NCBI RefSeq assembly: GCF_947496985.1
Contig: NZ_CANMEZ010000014.1
Coordinates: 16,379 to 80,378 of the forward strand
Length of the DNA: 64,000 nucleotides
From: an uncultured Kordia sp.
GTDB taxonomy: Bacteria > Bacteroidota > Bacteroidia > Flavobacteriales > Flavobacteriaceae
Direction: 5' to 3'
Position numbers and translations under genes: made by a program. This document shows positions 2,424 to 62,371 of the stretch, one piece after another (the stretch's first letter is position 1; each line of letters opens with the position of its first letter). The notes below the pieces were generated by a model. That model saw only the letters and a program-made list of their open reading frames with translations, had not been told where the DNA came from and did not search any database.

Positions 2424-3071
2424 ATGAGTAAAGAGAAAAATCAATTTACTGGACCTAAAAAATATTTAGAAAAGAGTTTTTTAGAAGAATTGAATTACAA
2501 AATATGGTCAACAAAAGGCGCAAGATTTAAAGCAGATAAAAGGTTGAGAGCTAAAGCAAAACTATCAAACATTACTTTAGCAATAATATCAGCTTATCTA
2601 ATTATCGCTAGTTTAATATCTGTTTATAGTATTGATAATAATAGTAATGAAAATTTGATTAATTATGCTATTACAGCTCTTTCAATATTACTCTTAGTGG
2701 TAAGTCAATTTGAAAACTCTCAGGAGTATAAATTGAATGCAAGAATTTTTCATGATTGTGGACTTGAATTATCTGAATTGTATAATGAATTACGGATTTT
2801 TAAAACATTAAAGAAAAAACCAACTGATTACGAAGCTTATGTCTTTAGTAAAAAATTATCTGAAAGATATCAAATTGTTCTTAAAAATTATCAAAATCAT
2901 TCTTCGATCGACTATAATATGTTTAGAGTGAGTAATTTAGATTATTTTGATACAATTGCTACTTCTGAAATAAAAAAAATTAAAAGGAAATATAATTGGG
3001 GAATTTATGGTTGGTATACAATAATGATTGTTATAATTCCAATTATAATAATTATTATTAAAGTAATTTGA
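2424..3071 (+). CDS. SLATT-like two-TM effector-domain protein (stand-alone)
   Basis: 215 aa. An N-terminal amphipathic segment (W.TKGARFKADKRLRAKAK) precedes two TM helices, then a helical region and a third C-terminal TM. The pattern matches my recollection of the SLATT family but has not been HMM-verified. Confidence 0.45.
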   Translation: MSKEKNQFTGPKKYLEKSFLEELNYKIWSTKGARFKADKRLRAKAKLSNITLAIISAYLIIASLISVYSIDNNSNENLINYAITALSILLLVVSQFENSQEYKLNARIFHDCGLELSELYNELRIFKTLKKKPTDYEAYVFSKKLSERYQIVLKNYQNHSSIDYNMFRVSNLDYFDTIATSEIKKIKRKYNWGIYGWYTIMIVIIPIIIIIIKVI

Positions 3072-3216
3072 ATAATATGATTTCATCTATAAAAAGCCTG
3101 TATAAGTAATAAGACTATTAAAAACAGTAGTTTCTTTTTATGTAAATTCTTCAACTTATTAAGAATCTCTTAGATTTGTAAGAAAATCATATGTCATATA
3201 ATGAACATATGTTCAT

Positions 3217-3234
3217 TATACACACGTTGGCAAG
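3217..3234. repeat. Left inverted repeat bracketing ORF 3243-3785
   Basis: TATACACACGTTGGCAAG lies 9 nt before the ATG. The reverse complement of 3793-3811 is TATACACCTTGTTGGCAAG (7+9 identical nt). Confidence 0.6.
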
Positions 3235-3242
3235 CATAAAAA

Positions 3243-3785
3243 ATGATATTCAAGAAAACAAAAAGCAATCTATTTGACCACTTGACAGAGCCTCAAAAAC
3301 CTTGGGGAAACCGTACAGTGATTTCTGCGGCTGGAATAATAGCTGGTGGATGGACAATTGATAACAAAATATTTCTTCTATCCTCTGATGGATACTCTAT
3401 TTCTAATCCCTTAACAGGAGAAAGAGAAATAAGGAATCGAGATGAAGAAAACACAGCAATGTCAAAGTTCTCCAAAGACAATCTTGAATTTACAATTGAT
3501 GAATTAAATCAAACCATAAAGGTGTTTGGATTAAGAGGCGGAAACGGAAATCACATAACCTCAGACCAATGGAATCTGGATTCATTTCACCTTGGAATTG
3601 GAGAACAAATTGTTGGGCTTCGAAATTTCAGAGACAGAAAAAATGAACCTCAATATTGGAAGAACTTTGATTTAATAAAATTAGAAAGATTGGAAAATTT
3701 CACATTGACATATGGATTTTCACCAAACGAAAAACACTTTGGAATCTTTGGCTCTGGTGGAGCAGAAATATTTAGTAGAGAATAA
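3243..3785 (+). CDS. Hypothetical protein (no signal peptide, no recognisable motif)
   Basis: 180-aa ORF with an ATG start, bracketed tightly by inverted repeats. The antisense ORF 3293-3481 is judged a shadow. Confidence 0.5.
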   Translation: MIFKKTKSNLFDHLTEPQKPWGNRTVISAAGIIAGGWTIDNKIFLLSSDGYSISNPLTGEREIRNRDEENTAMSKFSKDNLEFTIDELNQTIKVFGLRGGNGNHITSDQWNLDSFHLGIGEQIVGLRNFRDRKNEPQYWKNFDLIKLERLENFTLTYGFSPNEKHFGIFGSGGAEIFSRE

Positions 3786-3792
3786 AAAACGA

Positions 3793-3811
3793 CTTGCCAA
3801 CAAGGTGTATA
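3793..3811. repeat. Right inverted repeat bracketing ORF 3243-3785
   Basis: CTTGCCAACAAGGTGTATA starts 8 nt after the stop codon. It is followed by two hairpins (3844-3861 and 3863-3887). Confidence 0.6.
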
Positions 3812-4020
3812 GCCAATAAGGCATTTAGAGATAAATTGAAAGTCCTGTTCTTTTGAGCAGGCAACGCCAAAACAAAGTTTTGACGTTTAACAAAAAAGAA
3901 AATTAAAAGTAAAAACATTTGTTTTGGCTTAGTGGTAAACCGAAAGTGAAGTGCTTCGAATCTGCCCTACTGTCCATGCACAGAACGTTACCCAACATAA
4001 GACCAACCATACTCAAAAAA

Positions 4021-4488
4021 ATGAAATCAATAGGAATTAGAGCAACACCAAAAGAAATATATTTTGCGATTGTTGAGCAGAATGTAGAGGAGAACAATGT
4101 TATAACCATAGATAAACTGATTTTACCTCTATCATTAGAAATACCTGATAGACTTAACTTTGTTAGGAAAACCATAATTGATATTATAAATCAATATGAC
4201 GTTACAAAAGCTGGAATAAAAGTTACAGAGGGCAACGCTCAAAGGTTAAGCATTGAAAGAATATCCATAGAAGCTATAATCCAAGAATTATTTTCAAGTT
4301 GTTCTGTCCAAAAATATTTCGGAGGTAATATTTCAAAAATTTCGAGATTATTGGGACTTTCAAACAATGGAGATTTAAAGAAAATTATAAAAGGAGAAAG
4401 TATTCCATACAATTTAGAATTTCTTCAAGAAAATAATGAAACACAAAGAGAATCAGTATTATCAGCACTTGCTGCATTAAATTTATAA
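4021..4488 (+). CDS. Hypothetical 155-aa protein, translationally coupled partner of the Ser/Thr kinase
   Basis: The track ORF 3919-4488 begins with TTG, and the first ATG is at 4021 (MKSIGIRATPKEIYFAIVEQ...). Its stop TAA at 4486-4488 lies 1 nt before the kinase ATG at 4490. Confidence 0.55.
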   Translation: MKSIGIRATPKEIYFAIVEQNVEENNVITIDKLILPLSLEIPDRLNFVRKTIIDIINQYDVTKAGIKVTEGNAQRLSIERISIEAIIQELFSSCSVQKYFGGNISKISRLLGLSNNGDLKKIIKGESIPYNLEFLQENNETQRESVLSALAALNL

Positions 4489-4489
4489 A

Positions 4490-5539
4490 ATGAACATAGG
4501 ACTAAGAGAAGCTACCCTAAATTTTGAATTAAAAAATAACATCGGTGCAGAAGGGAAAAACTCTGATGTTTTCATAGCACACGATAAGCAATTTGATGCA
4601 GATATTGTAATAAAAAGAATACCTAAAGCAGATTTTAATTCGCCAAACGATTATTACAAAGAGGCTAAGTGTTTATATACTTCAAAGCATCAAAATATCG
4701 TTACAGTAAATTATTCTTGCGAAGATGATGACCATATATATATTGCAATGCCACATTATGGTAAAGGTTCTTTAGAATCTTTAACGAAAACAAGATTTTT
4801 AACAGTTAGAGAAATTCTTAAATATTCTATAGATTTTTTATCTGGTTTAAATCATATTCACACAAAAGGACTAATACATTTTGACATAAAGCCAACTAAT
4901 ATTTTAATATCTGATTCTAATGAAGCATTGGTTACTGATTTTGGTTTAGCAAAATTTACAAATATCCACAGAGTTGCCGAACAAGATAAATTTTACAGTT
5001 TACATACAGCACCTGAATGTCTTGTAACTAATCAATTTACCATTCAAGTAGATATTTATCACGCTGGTTTAACTTTGTATAGAATTTGTAACGGTTCTAA
5101 TATTTTTAAAAATCAACTTGCTGGCATAACATCGAAAGCAGAATTGGATAATTTAATCACATCAGGTAGTTTTCCTGATAGAAATTTCTTCTTACCTCAT
5201 ATTCCTCAAAAATTGAGAAATGTGATAAGAAAAGCTCTCTCTGTTAATCCATCTGATAGACATAACAATCTAATTGAACTTTTAAATGAACTTTCAAAAA
5301 TTCAAGAGAATTTGGATTGGCAATTAAGTACAATTCCTAATGGTAATAAATGGGAATTAGATATGGATAATAAAACATACGATATTTCGTTAATAAATAA
5401 TAATGGTTCTTTTAATATCGAGACATACAAGACTATGAAAAGTTCTGGAAATAGAACAAGAGTAAACGGAGATTTTAGAACTAATTTAACAATTCAAAAA
5501 GCCACAACAGAACTGAAGAAAATACTGAAGTCATATTAA
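4490..5539 (+). CDS. Hanks-type serine/threonine protein kinase with an uncharacterised ~80-aa C-terminal domain
   Basis: Kinase motifs are readable: G-loop-like GAEGKNSDVF, VIKRIPK, catalytic loop HFDIKPTNILI, DFGLAK, and APE as TAPECL. Confidence 0.8.
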   Translation: MNIGLREATLNFELKNNIGAEGKNSDVFIAHDKQFDADIVIKRIPKADFNSPNDYYKEAKCLYTSKHQNIVTVNYSCEDDDHIYIAMPHYGKGSLESLTKTRFLTVREILKYSIDFLSGLNHIHTKGLIHFDIKPTNILISDSNEALVTDFGLAKFTNIHRVAEQDKFYSLHTAPECLVTNQFTIQVDIYHAGLTLYRICNGSNIFKNQLAGITSKAELDNLITSGSFPDRNFFLPHIPQKLRNVIRKALSVNPSDRHNNLIELLNELSKIQENLDWQLSTIPNGNKWELDMDNKTYDISLINNNGSFNIETYKTMKSSGNRTRVNGDFRTNLTIQKATTELKKILKSY

Positions 5540-5569
5540 TTTCGTAAATTTGTAGTCTAGTTTTATTCA

Positions 5570-5767
5570 ATGAAAGTAAATAAAACAACATATAATCCTA
5601 ATAAAAATTTGACTAGAGGGGAACTTTCAAACCCTTTTTCAAATTCTTCAATTCATTCTAGAATTAAAAAATCTGGTGCCATCGATTTGAAAAATAACTC
5701 CGTGTGGACTGAAAAAAACGGTTATTCTCAAGTAAAACCAATTGATAAAACAAAGAAACTGAAATAA
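5570..5767 (+). CDS. Small basic hypothetical protein
   Basis: 65-aa ORF 30 nt after the kinase, on the same strand. No motif was recognised. Confidence 0.3.
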   Translation: MKVNKTTYNPNKNLTRGELSNPFSNSSIHSRIKKSGAIDLKNNSVWTEKNGYSQVKPIDKTKKLK

Positions 5768-6035
5768 ATTACGTTGGGTAACACCGTATATAATTTATTG
5801 CTAGTTCTCGCCTACTTACGAAAATCCTCGCGGACTTTCTATCTGTGATTTATTTGCTAACTTTAGTGCTTAAAACACGCAACAAACCATATACAACAAC
5901 GTTAACTGCACGTAAAAAACTAGAAACTAATTAAACGTTCATAATATTATAAAAGAAAGCTATTTTGAAAATGTATTTCGTAGAATAATTGAAGAATAAT
6001 GCTTGTAAATTTAAAAAGTAAACATAAGCGATTCT

Positions 6036-6058
6036 AGCGCTCGTTTGTAACGAGTGCT
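6036..6058 (-). terminator. Hairpin downstream of the XRE gene
   Basis: AGCGCTCGT TTGTA ACGAGTGCT gives a 9-bp stem with one G-U. The trailing U-run is weak. Confidence 0.35.
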
Positions 6059-6075
6059 TCACAGTCAAAACAATC

Positions 6076-6342
6076 TTACAACTTCCCCTTAATCCTCTCC
6101 AGCTCATCAATCACTTTTTGTAAAGCTTCGGTTGGGTTTTCTTCTTCTTTTGTTGGGTAAAACAAATCGCGAATATCTACATCTAGTGTTTTGGCAATCT
6201 TTACTAATAACTCAGGTTTTGGAAAACTATTCCCTTGAACAATATTAGAAATACTTGCAGGCGTAACGCCAACTTTTTCGGCTAAATCTTTCCCGGTAAT
6301 CTCTTTTTCTTTTAAAACTTCTTTCAGTCGTAAAATATTCAT
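6076..6342 (-). CDS. XRE-family helix-turn-helix transcriptional regulator
   Basis: 88 aa. It has a classic Cro/CI HTH (LKEVLKEKEITGKDLAEKVGVTPASISNIVQGNSFPKPELLVKIAKTLDV). Confidence 0.85.
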   Translation of the reverse strand: MNILRLKEVLKEKEITGKDLAEKVGVTPASISNIVQGNSFPKPELLVKIAKTLDVDIRDLFYPTKEEENPTEALQKVIDELERIKGKL

Positions 6343-6378
6343 GCGTTATAATCTGTAATAATTAAGGTAAAACTACGG

Positions 6379-6537
6379 AAATTATAGAGATACGTATATA
6401 AATCTATCAAAAATTATAGTTTCATGTAAAAGTATTAAAATTATAGAGATACTAAATAAATTTAGTGAAAATTATAGTTTAACTTGAATTAAATAAAAGT
6501 AATATTTATATTTGAAGTGTAATTATTATAGTAATAC
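6379..6537. promoter_or_regulatory. Iterated AATTATAG boxes in the divergent XRE / 6567 intergenic region
   Basis: AAATTATAGAGATAC occurs at 6379 and 6438. AAAATTATAGTTT occurs at 6410 and 6468, about 59-60 nt apart. A fifth box, ATTATTATAGTAATAC, lies at 6522. Confidence 0.55.
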
Positions 6538-6566
6538 TAAATATTTAACGCTTTTTAATAGATCAT

Positions 6567-6806
6567 ATGACAACACAACAGCAATTAAACAAAGAATTGG
6601 TAGCCGAATTAAAAGAAATAAAGCAAGAACTTGCCAAATACAAGCACAGTTTTGAAACCGAAATGAACATTAAAAACTATTTGTACTTCTTTATATTAAC
6701 CAATGATTTAGTAGCGTCATTACAAGAATTTCAAAAAAAGTATAATAATGACAACGGAGATTATTATATAAAATCCTTGGAGTACTTAGTGCGTACAAGT
6801 ACGTAG
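6567..6806 (+). CDS. Small hypothetical protein (helical), divergent from the XRE regulator
   Basis: 79-aa ORF with an ATG start, downstream of the box array. Confidence 0.4.
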   Translation: MTTQQQLNKELVAELKEIKQELAKYKHSFETEMNIKNYLYFFILTNDLVASLQEFQKKYNNDNGDYYIKSLEYLVRTST

Positions 6807-42348: not shown

Positions 42349-42522
42349 ATGTTAAAGAAAATTTTAAATCTCGCAGGAGTAGACGCACTTTCAAAAATAG
42401 AACAAATTGAAACTCAAGGAGGCAAAATTGTTCCTACCTTAGCTACATCATTTATGTGTTATTGTAATAATATATATATAGGTGAAAAAAAATCTGTTCA
42501 AGATTGTTGGAAAACCTGCTAA
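42349..42522 (+). CDS. GG-leader bacteriocin-like peptide precursor, 57 aa (not in ORF track)
   Basis: Manual translation gives MLKKILNLAGVDALSKIEQIETQGG|KIVPTLATSFMCYCNNIYIGEKKSVQDCWKTC*. It has a leader ending in GG and 4 Cys in the core, and is followed by a terminator. Confidence 0.55.
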   Translation: MLKKILNLAGVDALSKIEQIETQGGKIVPTLATSFMCYCNNIYIGEKKSVQDCWKTC

Positions 42523-46456: not shown

Positions 46457-46660
46457 GGTTATTAGAATTTTGTTTTCCTTACTCTATTTAAAAATTGGCT
46501 TTTCAGGATTTCGCCATAGTTAGGTGTAATCTTAATTTCATTTTAATGAATGAAATCACTTACAAATAACAATAAAAAGCAAGAATGTAAAAGGAAAGTA
46601 AATGACATTTTATAAAACATCAGTATAAAAAAAGCAGTGTGAAAATACAGGTAAAAGAAA

Positions 46661-46678
46661 AGCGAACCGAAGTTCGCT
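46661..46678 (-). terminator. UUCG-tetraloop hairpin terminator (copy 1)
   Basis: The + strand reads AGCGAACCGAAGTTCGCT, so the minus-strand RNA is AGCGAAC-UUCG-GUUCGCU followed by a U-rich tract. Confidence 0.65.
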
Positions 46679-46739
46679 TACATTTAGTAATTTCTTGCAA
46701 TAATTGAGGTTATTCACAACTATAGTAGTTCGCAAACTA

Positions 46740-46910
46740 CTAATTATGATCGCATCCAGGAGTTAGTTGTTTCTCTTTATCGCAAGTTCCATAAGATTGA
46801 ACTTGACAACAAGCAGATAATTCACTTCCGCCACCTTTAATCAAGTTTTGATTCATTACAGAAATAGGTGTTTTGTTTAGTTGTAATGTTTTAAAATTTC
46901 TTTTCTTCAT
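46740..46910 (-). CDS. GG-leader Cys-rich peptide precursor (56 aa)
   Basis: MKKRNFKTLQLNKTPISVMNQNLIKGG|GSELSACCQVQSYGTCDKEKQLTPGCDHN. The start was moved to the MKK that matches the paralogues. Confidence 0.6.
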   Translation of the reverse strand: MKKRNFKTLQLNKTPISVMNQNLIKGGGSELSACCQVQSYGTCDKEKQLTPGCDHN

Positions 46911-47010
46911 GGTATCTTTTGTTTGGTTTAACAATTAATAATAAGATACATATCCAGATTGTTAACTATTTACGGGATCACCATATTTAACATTTAAAGA
47001 GTATAAAAAA

Positions 47011-47027
47011 ACGAACCGAAGTTCGCT
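47011..47027 (-). terminator. UUCG-loop hairpin terminator (copy 2, shorter stem)
   Basis: ACGAACCGAAGTTCGCT flanked by A7 and T7. Confidence 0.55.
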
Positions 47028-47031
47028 TTTT

Positions 47032-47175
47032 TTAAAAGAAAGTATCGCAAGGTTCAAAACACGATTCAACTATTAAAGTTGGCAATGCTTTTTTACCACC
47101 TTTCAATTCTTCAAATTTCAATGTTGAAATTGCTCTTTTGTTTAGTGTTAACAATTTTAAATTCTGTTTTTTCAT
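47032..47175 (-). CDS. GG-leader peptide precursor, 47 aa (not in ORF track)
   Basis: Manual translation gives MKKQNLKLLTLNKRAISTLKFEELKGG|KKALPTLIVESCFEPCDTFF*. Confidence 0.55.
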   Translation of the reverse strand: MKKQNLKLLTLNKRAISTLKFEELKGGKKALPTLIVESCFEPCDTFF

Positions 47176-47277
47176 AATAAAAAGTTTAAATATTAATTAT
47201 GATAAAACTAGCTTTAAATAGAAAGGAACTATTCGTACAAAATGTACGATTTATCAAAATAGCATGCATAGTATATA

Positions 47278-47475
47278 CTATCCACAAAAAATAAAATTTG
47301 TTCTATATTCTCTATGAGTTGAACAAACTTTAAATGTAAAAGTTACTCCGGATACTGTCTGCCCTGTAGCTGCCGCTGCTCCTGAATTTGCTAAACCACC
47401 TTTTAATAGGACGGCATTAATGTCAGAAATTGTTTTCTTGTTTAAAGCTAATGATTTCAATTGTTGTTTTTTCAT
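47278..47475 (-). CDS. GG-leader peptide precursor (65 aa)
   Basis: MKKQQLKSLALNKKTISDINAVLLKGG|LANSGAAAATGQTVSGVTFTFKVCSTHREYRTNFIFCG. The start was moved to MKK. Confidence 0.6.
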   Translation of the reverse strand: MKKQQLKSLALNKKTISDINAVLLKGGLANSGAAAATGQTVSGVTFTFKVCSTHREYRTNFIFCG

Positions 47476-47642
47476 TGTATAAAATTTTAAGGTTTCTATC
47501 TTCATGGGTTGAGATACACAATTCATTACCCAAAAAAGAAAAATAAACTAGGTAGAATTAAATACAGATGGACACTATATATGTAGCTTTTGGATCGTAA
47601 ATATTCATCCAAAAGCTGTGATTTTAGTATATGATATAAAAA

Positions 47643-47660
47643 AAGCGAACCGAAGTTCGC
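47643..47660 (-). terminator. UUCG-tetraloop hairpin terminator (copy 3)
   Basis: AGCGAACCGAAGTTCGCT is identical to copy 1. A second hairpin lies at 47586-47618. Confidence 0.65.
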
Positions 47661-47672
47661 TTTAAATTTTAA

Positions 47673-47879
47673 TTAGCATAAAATATCTGTATGGCAAATG
47701 CATATAGAGTAATCAGTATTTGGTAAAGGAATAGGTGCTAAAGTGTGTTCAGTATCTGGTTCTACATGACAGATTTGAACGCTATAACATTTAGCTGTAC
47801 GGTATATTCCACCAGTAATACTAATATTAGAAATTGATTTCTTGTTAAGCTCTAAGCTTTTTAAATTCTTTTTTCTCAT
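47673..47879 (-). CDS. GG-leader Cys-rich peptide precursor (68 aa)
   Basis: MRKKNLKSLELNKKSISNISITGG|IYRTAKCYSVQICHVEPDTEHTLAPIPLPNTDYSICICHTDILC. Confidence 0.65.
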   Translation of the reverse strand: MRKKNLKSLELNKKSISNISITGGIYRTAKCYSVQICHVEPDTEHTLAPIPLPNTDYSICICHTDILC

Positions 47880-47990
47880 GATATAGAGTTTTATGATTTT
47901 ATACTTAAATGGGTTTAAATAAGAGAATCATTACCCAAAAGAGAGAATAGTTTGTTAAATAGTACGAATAGTAAAAGGGAGAAAGAAAAA

Positions 47991-48008
47991 AGCGAACCGA
48001 AGTTCGCT
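47991..48008 (-). terminator. UUCG-tetraloop hairpin terminator (copy 4)
   Basis: AGCGAACCGAAGTTCGCT is identical to copies 1 and 3. Confidence 0.65.
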
Positions 48009-48059
48009 TGTGCTTTATACTATTTGGCAATAGCCTCAATAACAGAAAAATTCTTCATA

Positions 48060-48221
48060 CTACATACTAGGTAATGATTTAAGAATCTGACAATCGTTAT
48101 GATGATAACATTGCATACCTGTATTTCCTCCGTTAATTTTTGCTTGTGCAGTTTTGTCCAATTCTTGAACACCTTTTAAGTTTAAAATGTTTTTTTCATC
48201 GTATAAATTTTGGTTTAACAT
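48060..48221 (-). CDS. GG-leader peptide precursor with a different leader type (53 aa)
   Basis: MLNQNLYDEKNILNLKGVQELDKTAQAKINGG|NTGMQCYHHNDCQILKSLPSM. The start was moved to the second Met. Confidence 0.5.
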   Translation of the reverse strand: MLNQNLYDEKNILNLKGVQELDKTAQAKINGGNTGMQCYHHNDCQILKSLPSM

Positions 48222-48307
48222 ATACCAAATGATGAAGAAAAGTATCACCTTAAAAAGTAAGTTGACTTAAATAGGATGATTTAAGACTTATTATAGTTTT
48301 AAAAAGA

Positions 48308-54490: not shown

Positions 54491-55681
54491 ATGTATTTCA
54501 GTTTTAACTTCAAAAGTTCAACCTTATTAATTTTCTTTATTCATGGACTGATATTTACATTATTATTACTGTATAAAGGTATTCGGAACGAAAACAAATC
54601 TAGTTTTTGGCTAGCATCGTTTATCTTTTTATGTTCGCTATATATTGCGCCTTTTATGTTGGGTTATGCAGGTTGGTATGGTAAAGATACATATCGGGAA
54701 ATATTATTTTTTATACCATTTCAGCAGTTATTTCTCATACCACCTTTACTATATTTTTATGTAAAAAGTTCGCTTACAATTTCGTTTCGATTTCAGAAGA
54801 AAGATTGGGTACATTTTATTCCTGCTATACTATACGCACTATATAGTTTGATTGTGTGGATAACAGACGTATTAGTGTTAGATGAATTTTACTTTTATGC
54901 AGATGGACGCGATAAAGATTTATCACTTTGGTATCAAATTTCAGGTTTCTTCATGCTAGTGTTCTATCTATTTCAATGCCTAAAACTGTATACAGCTTAT
55001 AAAAAGGAAACTTACGAAACGGTAAGTTATGCAGATACTATTTTGTACGCATGGATTCAACGATTTTTAATTGCTTTTTTAGGATTATTATTAATTCGAG
55101 TTTTATTCTTTATTCTCAATCCTGAATGGGCAAACTTTGGAAGAAAGTACTGGTATTATCTCTGTTTTTCAGTTCTATTTTATTACATCGCGCTTAGTGG
55201 ATATATTCATATTATAAAAATGCATGCTTCTTTTCAACCAAGATTGTCCACAACTTTTTCTGAGGATTTTCTAGCGGAAGCGGAAAAAGAAAAAATAACA
55301 CCGTCAAATACGGAAACGATGGAAGCTGAAATTACGGGAGTTGATGAAAACCTGAAAAACCAATTGGAAGATTTGATGATTGAAAAGATGATTTTTAAGA
55401 ATCCAAATTTAACCTTGTTTGATGTCGCCAAATTACTTGAAACGCACCCGAAAAAAGTATCAAATATCATTAATAAAGGTTTTAAAGTAAACTTTAACGA
55501 CTTTGTGAATTCGTACAGAACAGAAGAAGTCATCAAAAAAGTTACTTCTGATGAAAATGATTTGAAAACCTTATTAGGAATTGCATTGGACTCTGGATTT
55601 AACTCAAAATCAACGTTTAACAGGGCTTTTAAAAAACATACACAGCAAACTCCTAAAGAATATTTTAGCAAAAAAGTATAA
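54491..55681 (+). CDS. Multi-TM AraC-family transcriptional regulator
   Basis: 396 aa. About 7 hydrophobic helices precede a C-terminal AraC HTH (LGIALDSGFNSKSTFNRAFKKHTQQTPKEY). The antisense ORF 55234-55875 was rejected. Confidence 0.75.
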   Translation: MYFSFNFKSSTLLIFFIHGLIFTLLLLYKGIRNENKSSFWLASFIFLCSLYIAPFMLGYAGWYGKDTYREILFFIPFQQLFLIPPLLYFYVKSSLTISFRFQKKDWVHFIPAILYALYSLIVWITDVLVLDEFYFYADGRDKDLSLWYQISGFFMLVFYLFQCLKLYTAYKKETYETVSYADTILYAWIQRFLIAFLGLLLIRVLFFILNPEWANFGRKYWYYLCFSVLFYYIALSGYIHIIKMHASFQPRLSTTFSEDFLAEAEKEKITPSNTETMEAEITGVDENLKNQLEDLMIEKMIFKNPNLTLFDVAKLLETHPKKVSNIINKGFKVNFNDFVNSYRTEEVIKKVTSDENDLKTLLGIALDSGFNSKSTFNRAFKKHTQQTPKEYFSKKV

Positions 55682-57681: not shown

Positions 57682-58905
57682 ATGAAAAACTGTTTAGAAC
57701 AAAAAAGAGTTAACAATACATTTGTGATCATAGTTTCAGTTTTATTAGAACGCATTAGTTATTATGGAGTTCGTTCAATGTTGATATTATATATGATTGG
57801 TGAAACGCTTCAAATAGCACATTATGAAGCAATCACTATTTACCAATACATGTTAATCTTCTTACTCTTTTCACAATTATTAGGAGGAATTTTTGGAGAT
57901 TTTGTATTAAAGAATAAAAAATCAATCCTAATTGGAGGAATAGTAGCAGTTTTAGGGTGTGTACTTTTTTGTATCCCAAACATCAATATGATGTATTTAG
58001 GAATACTATTTTTGACATTGGGCTCTGGATTTTTAAAACCTAATATGTTAGCTGCGTATGGAAAGACATATTACAATGATAAACAATATTTAGACACAGC
58101 TTTTTCGCTTTATCACTTAGTTGTAAATATAGGTGCTTTCATTGGTGTTTTACTATTTGCATACATAAGTGATTCCTTTGGATTCCTTGTTGGATTTGGA
58201 TTTGCAGGAGTATTATATTTACTAACAGCTTTAGTATCATTTGCAATATCTGAAACAGATGAAAAACTTCAATACAATCAACAAAGTGCTTCAAGTTATG
58301 CTATACTCTATATTGTAATTGCTATGGTGACTTCTGTAGCTTTTTGGGCATTGTATGAGATGTCTGGAACATCTAGGTATATGTTGGGAGCTGATGAAAG
58401 CTTTATGAGTCAGTTAAGCGCATATTTTTCAAAAGAAATACTAGATTATATTGATGCTGTTTTTTTAATTCCCCTACTAATTATATTTGGCGGTATTTGG
58501 TTAAAATTTCATCGATCTCAATTTTTGAAAATTGCATTAGGATTTCTTTTTGGATCGCTGGCACTATTTCAGTTTTCTCAAATATCTATAGGTAATTTTC
58601 AAGAAAATATAGTTTACTTATTCAGCGGAATATTCTTTTACAGTTTAGCAGAAATATACATAGTAGTGATAACTTTTTCTATAATTACACGGTACACAAA
58701 TCCTAAATATCTAACAACGATAATGGCTTTGCTTGCTAGTCTTATAGGAGCTATAGTGTATCTTGTAAATCCTATAACTTCATTTTTGTTTAATAATGAT
58801 CCTTCATTAAGTACGTATGTTGGATTAAGCATTTCTATAGCAATTACAGTCATGTTGTTTTTAGGCTTTTTCTTTGGGAAAAAAATCTCAAAGACGAATG
58901 GATAA
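57682..58905 (+). CDS. POT/PTR2-family (proton-dependent oligopeptide) transporter-like MFS protein
   Basis: The ExxERFxYYG-like motif LLERISYYGVRS sits near the N-terminus, with about 12 hydrophobic segments. The track start at 57655 is TTG. Confidence 0.6.
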   Translation: MKNCLEQKRVNNTFVIIVSVLLERISYYGVRSMLILYMIGETLQIAHYEAITIYQYMLIFLLFSQLLGGIFGDFVLKNKKSILIGGIVAVLGCVLFCIPNINMMYLGILFLTLGSGFLKPNMLAAYGKTYYNDKQYLDTAFSLYHLVVNIGAFIGVLLFAYISDSFGFLVGFGFAGVLYLLTALVSFAISETDEKLQYNQQSASSYAILYIVIAMVTSVAFWALYEMSGTSRYMLGADESFMSQLSAYFSKEILDYIDAVFLIPLLIIFGGIWLKFHRSQFLKIALGFLFGSLALFQFSQISIGNFQENIVYLFSGIFFYSLAEIYIVVITFSIITRYTNPKYLTTIMALLASLIGAIVYLVNPITSFLFNNDPSLSTYVGLSISIAITVMLFLGFFFGKKISKTNG

Positions 58906-59452
58906 ATTCAAAAAATACAGTAAAAATATCTTAATCGCCTTTGTTTTGTTATTCGTATTTAAGGGGTTTTTATATCAAAAACTAGTGAATTATGCTAAAA
59001 CTGATACAAGAAAAGACTATGCAATTACCAATCAAAAACTTATCAAAACCATTGAAAAAGAAATAGCAGGAAAAGAACTAACTATTGATGCTATTATTAA
59101 TTGTAGTTTGAAGCTTACGGCAAAACATTTAAAGTTTAAATTAGAAGAAACTTCAAACAATCCGAATATCAATTTTGAAACGCAAAAAGCACATTGTGTA
59201 GGTTATGCAGCTTTATGTAATAGTATTGGAAACTACATTTTGGAAAAGAAACAACTAGCAAATACATACAAATTTACACATGTTGTTGGAAAGATAGAAT
59301 TTTTAGGATTTGATACACATCAACTATTTAAAAGTCCATTCTTTAAAGATCACGATTACAATGAAATCATTCATAAACAAACTGGTGAAAAGCAATTCAT
59401 TGATGCAAGTGTATATGATTATACTTGGATAAAGCGTATAAGATCTAATTAA
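58898..59452 (+). CDS. Hypothetical protein (N-terminal TM; possible transglutaminase-like Cys/His/Asp core)
   Basis: The ATG at 58898 overlaps the POT gene end by 8 nt. The fold suggestion rests only on the motifs KAHCVGYAALC and KDHDYNE. Confidence 0.4.
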   Translation: MDKFKKYSKNILIAFVLLFVFKGFLYQKLVNYAKTDTRKDYAITNQKLIKTIEKEIAGKELTIDAIINCSLKLTAKHLKFKLEETSNNPNINFETQKAHCVGYAALCNSIGNYILEKKQLANTYKFTHVVGKIEFLGFDTHQLFKSPFFKDHDYNEIIHKQTGEKQFIDASVYDYTWIKRIRSN

Positions 59453-59752: not shown

Positions 59753-59787
59753 AAAAGATGTAAACTTTCTAGTATTTTACATCTTTT
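59753..59787 (-). terminator. Hairpin terminator downstream of the 94-aa GG-leader gene
   Basis: 12-bp stem AAAAGATGTAAA / TTTACATCTTTT with an 11-nt loop. Confidence 0.5.
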
Positions 59788-59795
59788 AAATAAGA

Positions 59796-60080
59796 TTAAC
59801 AATTAGAATTAACAGAGCCTACAACACAATCATTATTAGATTGTAAACTATAACCTGTTGTATTTCCGCAAGGAGAATCCTCTCTTGTACGCGGTCTTCC
59901 ATGTGTGGAGCAAGTAGCTTCATAGCAACTCATATGTAAGGTATTAGGACAGTCGGTTTCAATAATAGTAACATTATTATATGGATTTGTTGTAATATCT
60001 GTTCCTCCAAAGAGATGAAGTGTTTTAAAATGTATAATTTTTGATTTGGTCAAGTGTAACTTTCGTTGTTGCTTTTTCAT
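59796..60080 (-). CDS. GG-leader Cys-rich secreted protein precursor (94 aa)
   Basis: MKKQQRKLHLTKSKIIHFKTLHLFGG|TDITTNPYNNVTIIETDCPNTLHMSCYEATCSTHGRPRTREDSPCGNTTGYSLQSNNDCVVGSVNSNC. The core has 7 Cys. Confidence 0.55.
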   Translation of the reverse strand: MKKQQRKLHLTKSKIIHFKTLHLFGGTDITTNPYNNVTIIETDCPNTLHMSCYEATCSTHGRPRTREDSPCGNTTGYSLQSNNDCVVGSVNSNC

Positions 60081-60159
60081 GAGTACGTATAATTAAAAAA
60101 TTCAATAACTAAAACTACAGATTGTTCGCTAACTCACTAAAAATATAAATGAAAAATAA

Positions 60160-60182
60160 TGTTCAATTCCGTGAATTGAACA
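60160..60182. promoter_or_regulatory. Perfect 10-3-10 palindrome TGTTCAATTC-CGT-GAATTGAACA (terminator of the AraC gene and/or operator)
   Basis: It abuts the stop codon of 60183-61859. On the minus strand it is followed by TTATTTTT. It lies about 80-100 nt upstream of the ATG of 59796-60080. Confidence 0.6.
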
Positions 60183-61859
60183 TTATTTTTCCTCAGTAGC
60201 ACGTACTTTTTTAATAAAGTAAGAAGGTTTCAAACCCGTTTTCTTTTGAAATGCTCTCAAAAAAGCGCCAGAATTGGTAAAACCAGCTTCTTGAGCAATG
60301 GCTTTAATAGTATACTTTTTATACATTTCGTCATTCTGAATGCGATCAATAGTATAATCTACACGTAAATCGTTGATGTAATTGGTAAAAGTTTTATTCT
60401 TATGTGAATTGATAATTTTGGAAAGATATTTAGAATTTGTTTGTGCAATTTTGGCAACTTCATGTAATGAAATTTGATTGGTTAAATACAGTTTTTTAAC
60501 TTCAAACATGCGCAATCGTTCCAAAATGGTTTCTGTCGTACTAGCATCTAATTCAACAGAATTTTCAAGAGTATCTTTTGTGTCAGGAATATTTTCTTTT
60601 TGTTCTATTTTGTAGCGTTCTTGCTGAGAAATAATTGCATCAAAACGCTTTTGGTATTGTATTCGCAATCGATAATAATAAAACAGAATTAAAAGTCCTA
60701 AAATGCTAATAAAAGCACCAATTCCAATGCTCCATCGAAGTTTCTGATTGGTTTGTTTAGAATCTTCCGTTAAGTTTACAATTAAGGTTTCTTTCTCATC
60801 TAACAATCGCGGAATATCATATTCTTTTACAATAGTTTGCGATAATTCTTTGTATTGTAAATGATGAATGCTGTCAAGTTTTAATAATCTATTTGTATAA
60901 TATAATTGCAGGGTTTTATCATCTTTTTGCTTGGCATTTTTAATCAAAAACTCATACGATTCACGTAGTGGTAATAAAATATCCGATTCATTTGAAAAAG
61001 CAGTATCAATCTTTCTAAAATAATACAAAGCTTTTTCAGATTTACCAATGGCATCATAACTTTTTCCAACATAAAATTCACCAATAAGTTGATCTAATTT
61101 GTGCAAATTTGGCAATGCCTTTTCAATACTATCTATAGCTGCAAGATGATTTCCACTAATTGATAAATTAATACCTTCATTCACTACAAAATGATAATAC
61201 AAAGGCAATTGTTCGTTTTTTAGCGTTAATGCAATGCCTTCTGTATTCATTGCTGTTGCTTTTGCATGCTGACCACTTTCATAATATATGCTTGATAATT
61301 GAAACAAAATATCATGTCGTACATTTTTGGTTGATTCAAATTCTAAACAATCCAAAAACGTTTGCTCGGCGCTTTCATAATCACCAATAGTACGTTGCAT
61401 AAAACCAATATTGTATTTGGCATCGTAATAAAAAACATTATGTCTGTTCTTTAGCGTTTTTTCAGCAAGTAAATAATTATCTAAAGCCTTAGCATAGTCA
61501 TTTTCATAATAAAATAGTGTTCCTTTTGCTAAATAGAAGTGTGCAGGAAATTCTTCATGTTTTAAGTTTTTGGTATACAAAATTGCACTATCCAAATATT
61601 GAATTTTTTTTGTGAAATCGGAAGTCGTTTTTCGTAGAAAGTAAAACCCTTTTCCAATACGTAAACTATCATTTTTCGCTTTCGCGCGATTAAAAAAAGC
61701 ATTGGTATAGGTTTGATATATTTCAGGATTCTTCGTATTTGCTGCAATTTGTGTTTCTAATTCTTTAAATGATGCACGTGTGAGTGAATCTGTTGCTTGT
61801 TGTCCGTAAAGAGTGCAACTAAAACATAGAATGATCAAGAAATATCGATACGAAAACAT
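60183..61859 (-). CDS. One-component regulator: signal peptide + extracytoplasmic TPR domain + single TM + cytoplasmic AraC-type HTH
   Basis: 558 aa. It has an N-terminal signal (FLIILCFSCTLYG), TPR-like repeats (YAKALDNYLLAEK, YESAEQTFLDCLE), a TM (WSIGIGAFISILGLLILFYYY), and a C-terminal HTH (IAQEAGFTNSGAFLRAFQKKTGLKPSYF). Confidence 0.8.
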   Translation of the reverse strand: MFSYRYFLIILCFSCTLYGQQATDSLTRASFKELETQIAANTKNPEIYQTYTNAFFNRAKAKNDSLRIGKGFYFLRKTTSDFTKKIQYLDSAILYTKNLKHEEFPAHFYLAKGTLFYYENDYAKALDNYLLAEKTLKNRHNVFYYDAKYNIGFMQRTIGDYESAEQTFLDCLEFESTKNVRHDILFQLSSIYYESGQHAKATAMNTEGIALTLKNEQLPLYYHFVVNEGINLSISGNHLAAIDSIEKALPNLHKLDQLIGEFYVGKSYDAIGKSEKALYYFRKIDTAFSNESDILLPLRESYEFLIKNAKQKDDKTLQLYYTNRLLKLDSIHHLQYKELSQTIVKEYDIPRLLDEKETLIVNLTEDSKQTNQKLRWSIGIGAFISILGLLILFYYYRLRIQYQKRFDAIISQQERYKIEQKENIPDTKDTLENSVELDASTTETILERLRMFEVKKLYLTNQISLHEVAKIAQTNSKYLSKIINSHKNKTFTNYINDLRVDYTIDRIQNDEMYKKYTIKAIAQEAGFTNSGAFLRAFQKKTGLKPSYFIKKVRATEEK

Positions 61860-61908
61860 ATATGATTTTTTGGTAATGCTAATATATCCATATCGTGTAA
61901 AATAATAA

Positions 61909-61968
61909 ATTGAACAAAGGAGAACTTTTAGTTCAATTCACGGAAATGAACATTTCTTTTGTTGAATT
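61909..61968. promoter_or_regulatory. Four alternating TTGAAC/GTTCAA-type half-sites between the AraC gene and the 62106 peptide gene
   Basis: ATTGAACA at 61909, GTTCAATT at 61931, ATGAACA at 61946 and GTTGAATT at 61961. The segment GTTCAATTCACGGAAATGAACA matches the reverse complement of the 60160 palindrome with one change. Confidence 0.5.
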
Positions 61969-62105
61969 GTGTATGAAAATGTATGTACTTCGTTAGCAGA
62001 AATAGAAAGTGTATTTGCGCAAAAACTAAATGAACTTGTGAAAATCTTACAAGGAGAATTCAAATTTAGACACTTTCAATAAGTATTAATTCAAAACATA
62101 AAAAG

Positions 62106-62291
62106 ATGAAAAAAAGAAATTTAAAATCACTTAAACTAAACAAGAAATTTATTTCAAACTTTAAAAGTATAGAAATTAGAGGAGGACTTAGCGGATTGAC
62201 ACGCTGTGGCTGTCCTGCTCCGGAAAGAACAAATTCATGTCAAGAACCACTTAGTCGAACAGATCAAGTAACTTGTTTAGGATGTTATTAG
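62106..62291 (+). CDS. GG-leader Cys-rich peptide precursor (61 aa)
   Basis: MKKRNLKSLKLNKKFISNFKSIEIRGG|LSGLTRCGCPAPERTNSCQEPLSRTDQVTCLGCY. The leader is nearly identical to that of 47673-47879. Confidence 0.65.
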   Translation: MKKRNLKSLKLNKKFISNFKSIEIRGGLSGLTRCGCPAPERTNSCQEPLSRTDQVTCLGCY

Positions 62292-62326
62292 GAGGATTTA
62301 GTTTCCAAGTATAAATTTTATGGAAA

Positions 62327-62344
62327 AGCGAGCTTAAGTTCGCT
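62327..62344 (+). terminator. Variant of the AGCGAAC hairpin terminator (copy 5)
   Basis: AGCGAGC-TTAA-GTTCGCT followed by TTTTCTC. Confidence 0.55.
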
Positions 62345-62371
62345 TTTCTCTATAATCTCAATTATAAAAGT

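Follow-up and report, generated by a model that had tools for sequence, protein, structure and literature searches.

A predicted membrane-anchored TPR–AraC regulator paired with genes for putative exported peptides and a precisely placed inverted repeat in flavobacteria

A regulator predicted to be anchored in the membrane, with an outward-facing domain of a peptide-binding type, is encoded next to small GG-leader peptide genes in an uncultured Kordia sp., and the pairing, together with a precisely positioned DNA repeat, recurs in about 100 related loci of marine and soil flavobacteria, suggesting a switch that may be controlled by the exported peptide. We examined the window, a 64,000-nt stretch of contig NZ_CANMEZ010000014.1 (assembly GCF_947496985.1, positions 16,379 to 80,378), in which a sequence-only reading had noted a TPR/AraC regulator between two GG-leader peptide genes with a shared palindrome on both flanks. 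That observation was confirmed, whereas the interpretation attached to it, an autoinduction or competition-sensing circuit in which the regulator is a receptor for the exported peptides, is only partly supported. We found no description of this cassette in the literature that we could search.

The regulator gene (60183–61859, minus strand) encodes 558 amino acids. Pfam searches gave hits above cutoff for HTH_18 (2.7e-12) and HTH_AraC (3.6e-8) at residues 469–550, while TPR_2, TPR_12, TPR_8 and TPR_1 scored near their cutoffs (TPR_2 just above) and TPR_6 well below; no HisKA, HATPase or receiver domain was detected. The AlphaFold2 model is confident (pLDDT 84.5) and shows a helical repeat domain at residues 30–336, one long helix at residues 349–419 and the HTH at residues 439–557. 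The N-terminal signal-peptide-like segment (residues 1–19, MFSYRYFLIILCFSCTLYG|QQ; 61803–61859, minus strand) ends LYG|QQ, and the glutamine after the predicted cleavage site fits the Bacteroidota 'Q-rule'. The TPR superhelix (residues about 30–336; 60852–61772, minus strand) is the predicted periplasmic sensor. A single transmembrane helix (residues 376–396, WSIGIGAFISILGLLILFYYY; 60672–60734, minus strand), the only hydrophobic 19-mer window with a Kyte–Doolittle mean >1.6, lies inside the long helix of the model and is followed by a positive cluster, RLRIQYQKRF. The AraC/XylS-type DNA-binding domain (residues about 451–552; 60204–60509, minus strand) contains most of the invariant columns of the family alignment. 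The predicted topology is consistent with the proposed periplasmic TPR and cytoplasmic AraC domains, and 944 family representatives were found at E ≤ 1e-30.

The downstream partner gene (59796–60080, minus strand) encodes a 94-aa peptide with the leader MKKQQRKLHLTKSKIIHFKTLHLFGG and a 68-aa core containing six cysteines, not the seven counted initially. The six cysteines are invariant and the motif T.G.PRT..SPCG is conserved in six orthologues. A hairpin, AAAAGATGTAAA...TTTACATCTTTT, follows the gene directly (59753–59787, minus strand); it is terminator-like, although it was not scored by the terminator scan because it has too few G-C pairs. The divergent gene (62106–62291, plus strand) encodes a 61-aa peptide with the leader MKKRNLKSLKLNKKFISNFKSIEIRGG and a core with five cysteines, in which the leader is conserved and the core hypervariable among orthologues. 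Leader-HMM E-values were 1.8e-12 and 5.1e-13 for the 94-aa and 61-aa peptides, respectively. The possibility that these small ORFs are not genes and that the leader resemblance is due to chance draws on the fact that neither window peptide reaches a curated Pfam or NCBIfam threshold, but it is contradicted by the remaining data and we consider it extremely unlikely: the leader HMM hits only the six known leader ORFs in the 64 kb, at E below 1e-9, with the next best hit at E = 1.7; the cysteines and the PRT..SPCG motif are kept in orthologues; position and strand are conserved in more than 80 loci; and gene callers in the source databases also call these ORFs.

The palindrome TGTTCAATTC-CGT-GAATTGAACA lies at 60160–60182 and abuts the regulator stop codon. 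Searching the 64 kb for GTTCAATTCNNNGAATTGAAC with up to 3 mismatches returned only two occurrences, at 60161–60181 (0 mismatches) and 61931–61951 (1 mismatch), against an expectation of 0.16. The downstream palindrome is really the core of an inverted repeat with 19-bp arms (60151–60191) that includes the stop codon. Its centre lies 90 nt from the ATG of the 94-aa peptide gene and about 54 nt from a candidate Bacteroidota -7 box, TAGTTTTA (60110–60117, minus strand), as in the rest of the family, making it a proposed operator of this promoter and possibly also the regulator's terminator. The block TGTAGTTTTA is conserved in 4 of the 6 orthologues and is one base off in a fifth, while the most distant orthologous locus, L082, has a shifted TATAGTTTTA. 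The upstream copy, GTTCAATTCACGGAAATGAAC (61931–61951), lies in the divergent promoter region within a block, CATTTCCGTGAATT, that is invariant in the six orthologues, about 55 nt from TATATTAG (61879–61886, minus strand), a candidate -7-like box of the regulator gene that is conserved in 5 of 6 orthologues and whose role as a promoter element is inferred. Of the two further TTGAAC-type half-sites proposed for this region, we found only one exact TTGAAC (61910), plus a TTGAATTG. A further conserved block, GTACTTCGTT ... TGTATTTGCGCAA (61985–62022, plus strand), comprises invariant alignment columns and contains the palindrome TTGCGCAA and a near-consensus -7 box, TGTATTTG; it is the probable promoter of the divergent peptide gene, a function that is inferred.

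To determine whether the gene linkage is conserved, we compared related loci. Six of six orthologous loci (63–78% regulator identity) keep the divergent peptide, the regulator and the downstream peptide, as well as both palindromes, which are conserved while the surrounding intergenic DNA drifts. Among 96 homologous regulators of Kordia, Aquimarina and Flavobacterium, 81 are followed within 500 nt on the same strand by a leader-HMM-positive ORF, compared to 1 of 329 other ORFs of at least 150 aa (Fisher p = 2.6e-70); in the underlying survey 15 of 97 regulators lack a detectable downstream peptide. A lack of conserved association with GG-leader ORFs had been named beforehand as a result that would refute the proposal, and the data show the opposite, the association being among the strongest features of the family. 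Tandem arrays of up to five regulators occur, with four in locus L003 and five in locus L055; all four in L003 and three of the five in L055 are followed by their own peptide gene.

The repeat is placed relative to the peptide promoter rather than to the regulator's stop codon. Of 82 peptide promoters, 59 carry TTC-N2-3-GAA centred 80–100 nt upstream of the ATG, whereas shuffled sequences gave a mean of 0.9 and a maximum of 4. An exact TAnnTTTG is present at the place of the -7 box in 44 family promoters, and in 39 of these 44 the distance from the repeat centre to TAnnTTTG is 52–53.5 nt, an activator-like position; in contrast, the distance from the regulator stop codon varies from 0 to 71 nt. 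We found 90 perfect repeats with arms of at least 6 nt, compared to 12.6 +/- 3.2 in shuffles, of which 31 lie just downstream and 29 just upstream of regulator genes. These results bear on the alternative that the palindrome is only a transcription terminator of the regulator gene, with a coincidental second copy and no regulatory link to the peptide genes. In favor of this view, the window's downstream copy forms a 19-bp RNA hairpin (-23.6 kcal/mol, z = -7.5) with a U-rich tail and is called terminator-like. However, the upstream copy forms no stable hairpin (z = -0.5 to -0.9), nor do most family copies (z about 0 for the paralogue copies), the conserved TTC...GAA core is sequence-specific across three genera, and uncompensated arm substitutions occur in the orthologous loci L080 and L081, arguing for a DNA site rather than an RNA structure. 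Together with the spacing fixed to the peptide promoter and the copies upstream of regulator genes, this contradicts the terminator-only reading, which we regard as very unlikely.

The best explanation is that the locus is one copy of a modular cassette widespread in Flavobacteriaceae, in which a single-pass membrane one-component regulator, with its TPR superhelix exported to the periplasm and its AraC-type domain in the cytoplasm, would bind the inverted repeat with the core TTC-N2-3-GAA (here TGTTCAATTC-N3-GAATTGAACA). In this view, one copy about 53 nt upstream of the -7 box of the downstream peptide gene, roughly at position -65, would act from a class-I-activator-like position, and the second, at the same distance from the regulator's own putative promoter, would act within the region shared with the divergent peptide gene. 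The peptides would presumably be cleaved and exported by a C39-peptidase ABC exporter encoded elsewhere; the mature partner peptide would be bound by the periplasmic TPR domain, switching the regulator on and raising transcription of the regulator, the partner peptide and the divergent bacteriocin/RiPP-like peptide in an autoinducing, positive-feedback loop. Our computations show the gene linkage, the conservation and fixed geometry of the repeat, the predicted topology and the leader type, whereas binding of the repeat by this regulator, activation rather than repression, and the identity of the exported peptide as the ligand are inferred from sequence alone. We are confident that the regulator controls the peptide genes through the repeat, but only tentative about the exported partner peptide being the ligand, such that confidence in the model as a whole is moderate. 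Against the model, palindromic sites are not the typical AraC-family target. A reading in which the regulator is a repressor, or the peptide an antagonist, giving homeostatic negative feedback, could draw on palindromic operators being common for repressors, on the overlap of the downstream copy with the stop codon and terminator-like hairpin, and on the sign of regulation being inferred only. We consider it unlikely because the repeat is centred about 53 nt upstream of the -7 box with +/-1 nt precision, upstream of the core promoter, where activators of the AraC family usually act, while repressor sites usually overlap the core promoter.

Support for peptide sensing is weaker. The TPR domain resembles peptide-binding TPRs, LGN and, weakly, Rap, but the fold is generic: the best Foldseek matches are consensus TPR, LGN/Pins and OGT, with Rap-CSF at rank 33, and profile searches gave hits to RapF and RapJ at 2e-8 and 1e-7. 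The HTH is far more conserved than the TPR domain; for example, tandem paralogues in L055 have 99% HTH, 49% TPR and 13% peptide-core identity. Among pairs with HTH identity of at least 0.9, TPR and core identity correlate (rho 0.83), although this may simply reflect shared divergence time with a slow HTH, or a gene-conversion patch over HTH, intergenic region and leader in L055, and is not proof of co-evolution. Many Kordia paralogues share the same repeat core, so what differs between cassettes is the sensor domain and the peptide. On the other hand, the 68-aa, six-cysteine mature partner peptide is well conserved among orthologues and large for a pheromone, and we infer that a peptide exported across both membranes would have to re-cross the outer membrane to reach a periplasmic sensor.

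The leaders are of the Bacteroidota class I lanthipeptide type (LxLxKx5L...GG), the motif described for Bacteroidetes class I LanAs (Walker et al. 2020, PMC7268733), which the sequence-only reading had not recognized. Some partner peptides pass the NCBIfam class I lanthipeptide leader model NF038153, whereas the window peptides score below its cutoff. In about 20 related loci, which are lanthipeptide-like gene clusters, the peptide gene is followed or preceded by S8 protease and split LanB (Lant_dehydr_N and Lant_dehydr_C), and in a subset a C39-ABC exporter and HlyD are also present, in some loci 2–3 kb away; there the peptide is at least also a biosynthetic precursor, and it may be a product as much as a signal. 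No exporter or modifying enzyme, including LanB and LanC, was found among the window's ORFs screened, i.e. the ten largest of the first 40 kb by Pfam and those from 40 kb on by reading their translations. These clusters, together with the generic TPR fold, make it possible, though less favored, that the regulator is a cluster-situated regulator that controls adjacent RiPP or bacteriocin precursor genes through the repeat without sensing the peptides, which would be only products, its TPR domain responding instead to envelope stress, a competitor's molecule, a nutrient or the export machinery. Against this, most loci, including the window, have no modifying enzyme nearby yet keep the strict one-regulator, one-peptide pairing, and the tandem arrays in L003 and L055, with most members having their own peptide and nearly the same DNA site, are hard to explain if all sense a common cue. 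The two readings overlap, as in lantibiotic clusters such as nisin product and signal can be the same molecule.

The sequence-only reading had also linked the locus to an array of GG-leader genes at 46.7–48.2 kb. The array hairpin AAGCGAACTTCGGTTCGCTTTT occurs 4 times in the array, and a 3-mismatch variant, the terminator hairpin AAGCGAGCTTAAGTTCGCTTTT (62326–62347, plus strand), follows the 61-aa gene, as claimed. However, the leader of the 62106 peptide, described as almost identical to that of the array member at 47673, is by our count about 74% identical over its first 19 residues, thus similar rather than almost identical, and the array has no copy of the inverted repeat. The proposed link is therefore weak, resting only on a shared leader type and a shared terminator repeat.

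Parts of the arrangement are familiar from known systems. In the GG-leader pheromone circuits of Gram-positive bacteria (ComC/ComAB/ComDE, BlpC/BlpAB/BlpHR and the PlnA/PlnBCD 'three-component' bacteriocin regulation), a small double-glycine-leader peptide is likewise encoded next to an outward-facing membrane sensor, with export here presumed to go through a C39-peptidase ABC transporter, the same operator in front of sensor and peptide genes in a positive-feedback layout, and bacteriocin-like GG peptides as co-regulated neighbours; the Kordia sensor, however, is predicted to be one protein rather than a histidine kinase plus response regulator, the host is a Gram-negative Bacteroidota with an outer membrane, the partner peptide is long and Cys-rich, and the circuit is inferred from sequence. 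Lantibiotic autoinduction (nisin NisRK, subtilin SpaRK) and the Bacteroidetes class I lanthipeptide clusters, including pinensin, share the idea that a ribosomal peptide product induces its own cluster, but the sensor here is not a two-component system. As in the RRNPP receptors of Firmicutes (Rap, NprR, PlcR, PrgX, Rgg), a TPR-type helical-repeat protein, here a putative receptor, is encoded immediately upstream of its small peptide gene and many diverged receptor–peptide cassettes occur per genome, although similarity is at a generic TPR level; RRNPP receptors are cytoplasmic, bind re-imported peptides and have an N-terminal XRE HTH or phosphatase output, whereas here the TPR is predicted periplasmic, the output is a C-terminal AraC domain behind a TM helix, and the peptides use a GG leader rather than a Sec signal. 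Membrane-bound one-component regulators (ToxR, TcpP, CadC, and BcrR of Enterococcus, which senses the peptide antibiotic bacitracin) also couple an extracytoplasmic or membrane signal directly to DNA binding within a single polypeptide spanning the membrane, but ToxR-like proteins have an N-terminal cytoplasmic winged-helix domain and a C-terminal periplasmic domain, the reverse of the order predicted here, and the DNA-binding fold is different. Finally, the hybrid two-component systems (HTCS) of Bacteroides are Bacteroidota inner-membrane sensors with a periplasmic sensor domain and a cytoplasmic AraC-type output domain, yet they contain histidine-kinase and receiver domains and sense glycans, and the partner of the Kordia regulator is a peptide gene rather than a polysaccharide utilisation locus.

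The three open reading frames described in the sequence-only reading lie exactly where it placed them, and its observation held: 59796-60080 (-) encodes 94 aa, 60183-61859 (-) encodes 558 aa and 62106-62291 (+) encodes 61 aa. The 558-aa protein carries a C-terminal AraC/XylS-type DNA-binding domain, with HTH_18 at 47.2 bits (cutoff 33.6) and HTH_AraC at 33.8 bits (cutoff 26.6) at residues 469-550, whereas the Pfam models TPR_2, TPR_12, TPR_8 and TPR_1 score near their cutoffs (TPR_2 just above) and TPR_6 is well below. An AlphaFold2 model built on 41 homologues is confident (mean pLDDT 84.5) and shows a helical-repeat domain at residues 30-336, one very long helix at 349-419, a disordered linker at 420-438 and the AraC domain at 439-557. 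The only strongly hydrophobic 19-residue window, at residues 376-396, lies inside the long helix and is followed by RLRIQYQKRF, and the N-terminus MFSYRYFLIILCFSCTLYG|QQ looks like a cleavable signal peptide. Given that the DNA-binding domain must be cytoplasmic and that one TM helix separates it from the TPR domain, the TPR domain is predicted to be periplasmic. This order is the reverse of that in ToxR-like membrane one-component regulators, which have an N-terminal cytoplasmic winged-helix domain and a C-terminal periplasmic domain, and the DNA-binding fold is AraC. Neither the HisKA/HATPase and receiver domains that lie between the sensor and the AraC output in Bacteroides hybrid two-component systems, nor any other kinase or receiver domain as in the histidine kinase-response regulator pairs of GG-leader pheromone and class II bacteriocin systems, were detected in the regulator, and only 43 residues lie between the TM helix and the HTH.

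The palindrome TGTTCAATTC-CGT-GAATTGAACA (60160-60182) abuts the stop codon of the regulator gene. The pattern GTTCAATTCNNNGAATTGAAC, allowing up to 3 mismatches, occurs in the 64 kb only at 60161-60181 and 61931-61951, against an expectation of 0.16. Three details required correction: the 94-aa peptide has 6 Cys rather than the 7 originally counted, the downstream repeat has 19-bp arms (60151-60191), and only one extra exact TTGAAC, instead of two further half-sites of this type, lies in the divergent region.

The closest named homologues of the regulator are from Kordia species (Flavobacteriaceae), at 74% identity, and Kordia, Aquimarina and Flavobacterium genomes each carry many paralogues. 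Five orthologous loci (designated L080, L001, L081, L002 and L082) have 63-78% regulator identity, and all keep the same layout of divergent small gene, regulator and downstream small gene. In L001, L002, L080 and L081 the same flanking genes are also present where the contigs reach them, with DUF1572 on one side (L001, L002, L080) and an MFS/PTR2 transporter on the other (L001, L081). L001 and L081 also carry a 199-aa protein with no Pfam hit just after the downstream peptide gene, between it and the transporter, a position that is occupied in the window by a 192-aa ORF on the opposite strand (58874-59452, +). The two peptides behave differently: the downstream peptide is a conserved protein with six invariant Cys and a T.G.PRT..SPCG motif, 51-66% identical among orthologues, whereas the divergent peptide keeps its leader but has an unalignable, hypervariable core. 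In the intergenic alignments the repeat cores are invariant while the surrounding sequence drifts; two orthologues have arm substitutions that are not compensated on the other arm, and one (L082) has a symmetric double change. The upstream region holds a second block that is invariant in six orthologues, GTACTTCGTT...TGTATTTGCGCAA (61985-62022), which contains the 8-nt palindrome TTGCGCAA and lies between the repeat and the divergent peptide gene. We take it to be the promoter of the divergent gene, although it could also be the site of a second regulator.

To investigate whether the association extends beyond these orthologues, we used a pattern-based scan of one genome per species, which returned 77 loci (L003-L079); together with L001, L002 and the window, these hold 97 full-length regulators with enough flanking DNA. 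A leader HMM trained on Kordia found no peptides in the Aquimarina and Flavobacterium loci, which at first suggested a genus-restricted association, but a looser scan and a second HMM showed that the partner peptides are present there with a diverged leader subtype. Scanning every small ORF in about 900 kb with a leader HMM gave 107 hits, of which 91 lie within 500 nt downstream of a regulator on the same strand, and most of the rest are second or third peptide genes further down the same cassette. As a control within the same loci, 81 of 96 regulators have such an ORF downstream, against 1 of 329 other ORFs of at least 150 aa (Fisher p = 2.6e-70), so that the absence of a conserved association, which would have counted against the proposed circuit, was not observed. 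A small peptide gene adjacent to the receptor gene is also a feature of RRNPP systems. Tandem arrays occur, with four regulators in L003 and five in L055; all four in L003 and three of the five in L055 are followed by their own peptide gene. In Kordia-type loci, additional GG-leader peptides of the type found in the 46.7-48.2 kb array of the window usually lie divergently upstream, as in the window itself.

When the 82 peptide upstream regions are aligned on the ATG, a TTC-N2-3-GAA inverted repeat appears at a fixed place, followed by the Bacteroidota -7 promoter box TAnnTTTG. The motif is centred 80-100 nt from the ATG in 59 of 82 regions, whereas shuffled sequences give a mean of 0.9 and a maximum of 4, and in 39 of the 44 regions with an exact -7 box the distance from the repeat centre to the box is 52-53.5 nt. 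In contrast, the distance from the regulator's stop codon varies from 0 to 71 nt, indicating that the element is positioned relative to the peptide promoter and not relative to the end of the regulator gene. Perfect repeats of this type with arms of at least 6 nt number 90, against 12.6 +/- 3.2 in shuffles; 31 of these lie just after and 29 just before regulator genes, and some of the rest sit about 87 nt before extra peptide genes. In three Aquimarina species the same 19-21-nt perfect repeat TCCAATTCATGGAATTGGA recurs 1.3-3.5 kb downstream of the nearest regulator gene (L026 at 7978, L037 at 10148 and L048 at 8822), outside the windows scored as regulator-adjacent and near conserved genes of unknown function (neighbouring-gene clusters c20 and c29), and these copies may mark additional regulon targets. 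In the window, the downstream repeat centre (60171) is 54 nt from TAGTTTTA (60110-60117), and the upstream centre (61941) is 55 nt from a conserved TATATTAG box before the regulator gene. Bacteroidota promoters have a -7/-33 consensus, and with the -7 box in its usual place the repeat centre falls near -65, a position at which activators typically sit. A sigma-70 promoter scan was uninformative for Bacteroidota, with hits at shuffle level.

The reading that the palindrome acts only as a transcription terminator is contradicted by its fixed spacing to the peptide promoter, by the copies before regulator genes and by the RNA folding. As RNA, the downstream copy in the window is a strong hairpin (-23.6 kcal/mol, z = -7.5) with a U-rich tail and is called terminator-like, so it may also end the regulator transcript. 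However, the upstream copy and copies from other loci fold no better than shuffles, indicating that hairpin stability is not the conserved property. We also expected the repeat arms to reveal paralogue-specific operators, but many Kordia paralogues share the same core (ATAATTCACGGAATTGT), and DNA specificity therefore does not separate the cassettes; what distinguishes them is the sensor domain and the peptide.

Both window leaders, which end in GG at residues 25-26 and 26-27 and match the leader HMM with E values of about 1e-12, fit the LxLxKx5L...GG motif (LHLTKSKIIHF...GG and LKLNKKFISNF...GG) described by Walker et al. for class I lanthipeptide precursors of Bacteroidetes, often with a C39 protease in the cluster (PMC7268733). 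Neither window peptide gave a hit with the curated NCBIfam model NF038153 (cutoff 22 bits), and members of the 46.7-48.2 kb array score 14-19.5 bits, whereas two of nine partner peptides tested from other loci score 23-27 bits. Clustering of the neighbouring genes and scanning of representatives showed that the Flavobacterium loci are typically arranged as C39-ABC exporter and HlyD (divergent), then regulator, peptide, S8 protease, LanB N-terminal protein and LanB C-terminal protein, while several Aquimarina loci have split LanB before the regulator, or a prolyl oligopeptidase after the peptide. Overall, split LanB is present in about 20 related loci and a C39-ABC exporter lies 2-3 kb away in 6-8 of 79. 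In L030, L057, L058, L059, L061 and L067 (Aquimarina and Flavobacterium), a prolyl oligopeptidase (Peptidase_S9 with a beta-propeller) directly follows the partner peptide gene instead of the S8 protease, which suggests alternative maturation routes. Kordia paralogue cassettes are followed by a thioredoxin-like protein; in L003, L004, L005, L007, L008, L009 and L013 (Kordia and related) this is a convergent 441-aa protein (DUF5106 plus Thioredoxin_8/AhpC-TSA), a candidate disulfide-handling partner for the Cys-rich peptides. Many loci show no such enzyme within 5 kb, and in the window no exporter, LanB, LanC or other RiPP enzyme was found among the ten largest ORFs of the first 40 kb scanned with Pfam, nor among the ORFs from 40 kb on, which were read only as translations. 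The partner peptide is therefore at least sometimes a RiPP precursor, and in this window it is an orphan, among the ORFs screened, with respect to modification and export genes. The main rival explanation is that the protein is a cluster-situated regulator sensing some other periplasmic cue and the peptides are only products; the two readings overlap, as nisin shows.

Foldseek places the sensor model among TPR superhelices, namely consensus TPR, the peptide-binding LGN/Pins and OGT, with Rap-CSF at rank 33, and a profile search of PDB sequences also hits RapF and RapJ at 2e-8 and 1e-7. These matches to Rap proteins are at the generic TPR level only, compatible with peptide binding but not specific for it, and the predicted periplasmic location differs from that of RRNPP receptors, which are cytoplasmic and bind re-imported peptide. 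Across the family the HTH domain is much more conserved than the TPR domain (mean pairwise identity 55% against 35%), and peptide cores are near random similarity (20%). Among pairs with at least 90% identical HTH, TPR identity ranges from 41% to 96% and tracks core identity (rho 0.83), whereas partial correlations over all pairs are near zero (0.08). The tandem L055 paralogues (2569-4371 and 4983-6689, uncultured Aquimarina) show a mosaic pattern, with HTH 99% identical, a near-identical intergenic region and identical first 10 leader codons, but TPR 49% and core 13% identical, suggesting gene conversion or module shuffling within cassette arrays. The covariation fits receptor-ligand co-diversification, but it could also be due to shared history plus a conversion tract over HTH, intergenic region and leader, and we consider it suggestive only.

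Taken as a whole, the computations give good support for the coupling of a membrane-anchored TPR-AraC regulator, of predicted topology, to GG-leader peptide genes and for a conserved inverted repeat at an activator-like position in front of both the partner peptide gene and the regulator gene, whereas it is inferred that the regulator binds the repeat, for which the only evidence is the indirect one of a conserved repeat phase-locked to the -7 box, that it activates, and that its predicted periplasmic TPR domain senses the exported partner peptide, closing an autoinduction loop that would also drive the divergent bacteriocin-like gene. The earlier interpretation of the locus as a peptide-responsive circuit is partly supported: the layout, with the repeat before both regulator and peptide genes, is compatible with a peptide inducing its own synthesis. 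For true cell-to-cell signalling the outer membrane poses a mechanistic difficulty, as a 68-aa disulfide-rich peptide exported to the medium would need a route back to the periplasm; alternatively, the loop may be cell-autonomous.

We found no description of this cassette in the literature searched, which did not include subscription journals, so that an earlier description cannot be excluded; a Bacteroidales RiPP-mining paper merely notes TPR and HTH genes in some clusters (PMC10352776). GG-peptide autoinduction, RiPP cluster regulation and membrane one-component regulators are each known, and what the present locus adds to them is a concrete operator and promoter architecture, as predicted from sequence. 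Peptide-based autoinduction is textbook knowledge for Gram-positive bacteria, whereas for Bacteroidota a 2026 quorum-sensing review lists only N-acyl-cyclolysines (PMC13419125). The family is large, with 944 representatives at 50% identity and E <= 1e-30, and the compact two- or three-gene module of receptor-regulator, partner peptide and defined putative operator with fixed promoter geometry, recurring about a thousand times at this cluster level, makes the question directly testable. It also provides a likely control point for the many uncharacterised Bacteroidota lanthipeptide-type clusters, in which an operator and a regulator could be used to switch silent clusters on. Even if the protein is only a cluster-situated regulator, the predicted operator and promoter architecture are new and useful annotation for this regulator family.

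A further-reaching possibility, which we consider rather unlikely on present evidence, is that the cassette family would be the first peptide-based cell-to-cell signalling system of Bacteroidota, in which a periplasmic TPR one-component receptor would directly sense its cognate exported GG-leader peptide and autoinduce it together with neighbouring bacteriocin/RiPP genes, and which would have expanded into many pherotype-like receptor-peptide pairs per genome in Kordia, Aquimarina and Flavobacterium. Kordia algicida has a density-dependent protease release that is induced by a filtrate from which proteases and other high-molecular-weight constituents had been removed by centrifugal ultrafiltration; no AHL was detected and no signal has been identified (PMC3117869). 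The cassette is a candidate for the unknown density signal in algicidal Kordia, and in this further-reaching view it could be the unidentified non-AHL, low-molecular-weight signal behind the protease release.

The tie proposed in the sequence-only reading between this locus and the array at 46.7-48.2 kb is weak. The array (46658-48248, - strand) comprises five small GG-leader peptide genes, 46740, 47032, 47278 and 47673 with the LxLxKx5L leader and 48060 with a different leader, and four of them are each followed by the identical hairpin AAGCGAACTTCGGTTCGCTTTT, which looks like a repeated terminator cassette. A search of the array for the inverted repeat found no copy, no TTC-N3-GAA repeat and no regulator is adjacent, and only the leader type and the repeated terminator hairpin are shared with the regulator locus. 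Elsewhere in the window, a 57-aa ORF (42349-42522, +) with a class II bacteriocin-type GG leader (MLKKILNLAGVDALSKIEQIETQGG) and a 4-Cys core stands alone next to a XerD-like recombinase gene. A second membrane-anchored AraC regulator of a different design (54491-55681, +; 396 aa) has a polytopic hydrophobic N-terminal half and a C-terminal AraC HTH, with partial NCBIfam hits, and no GG peptide was seen adjacent to it.
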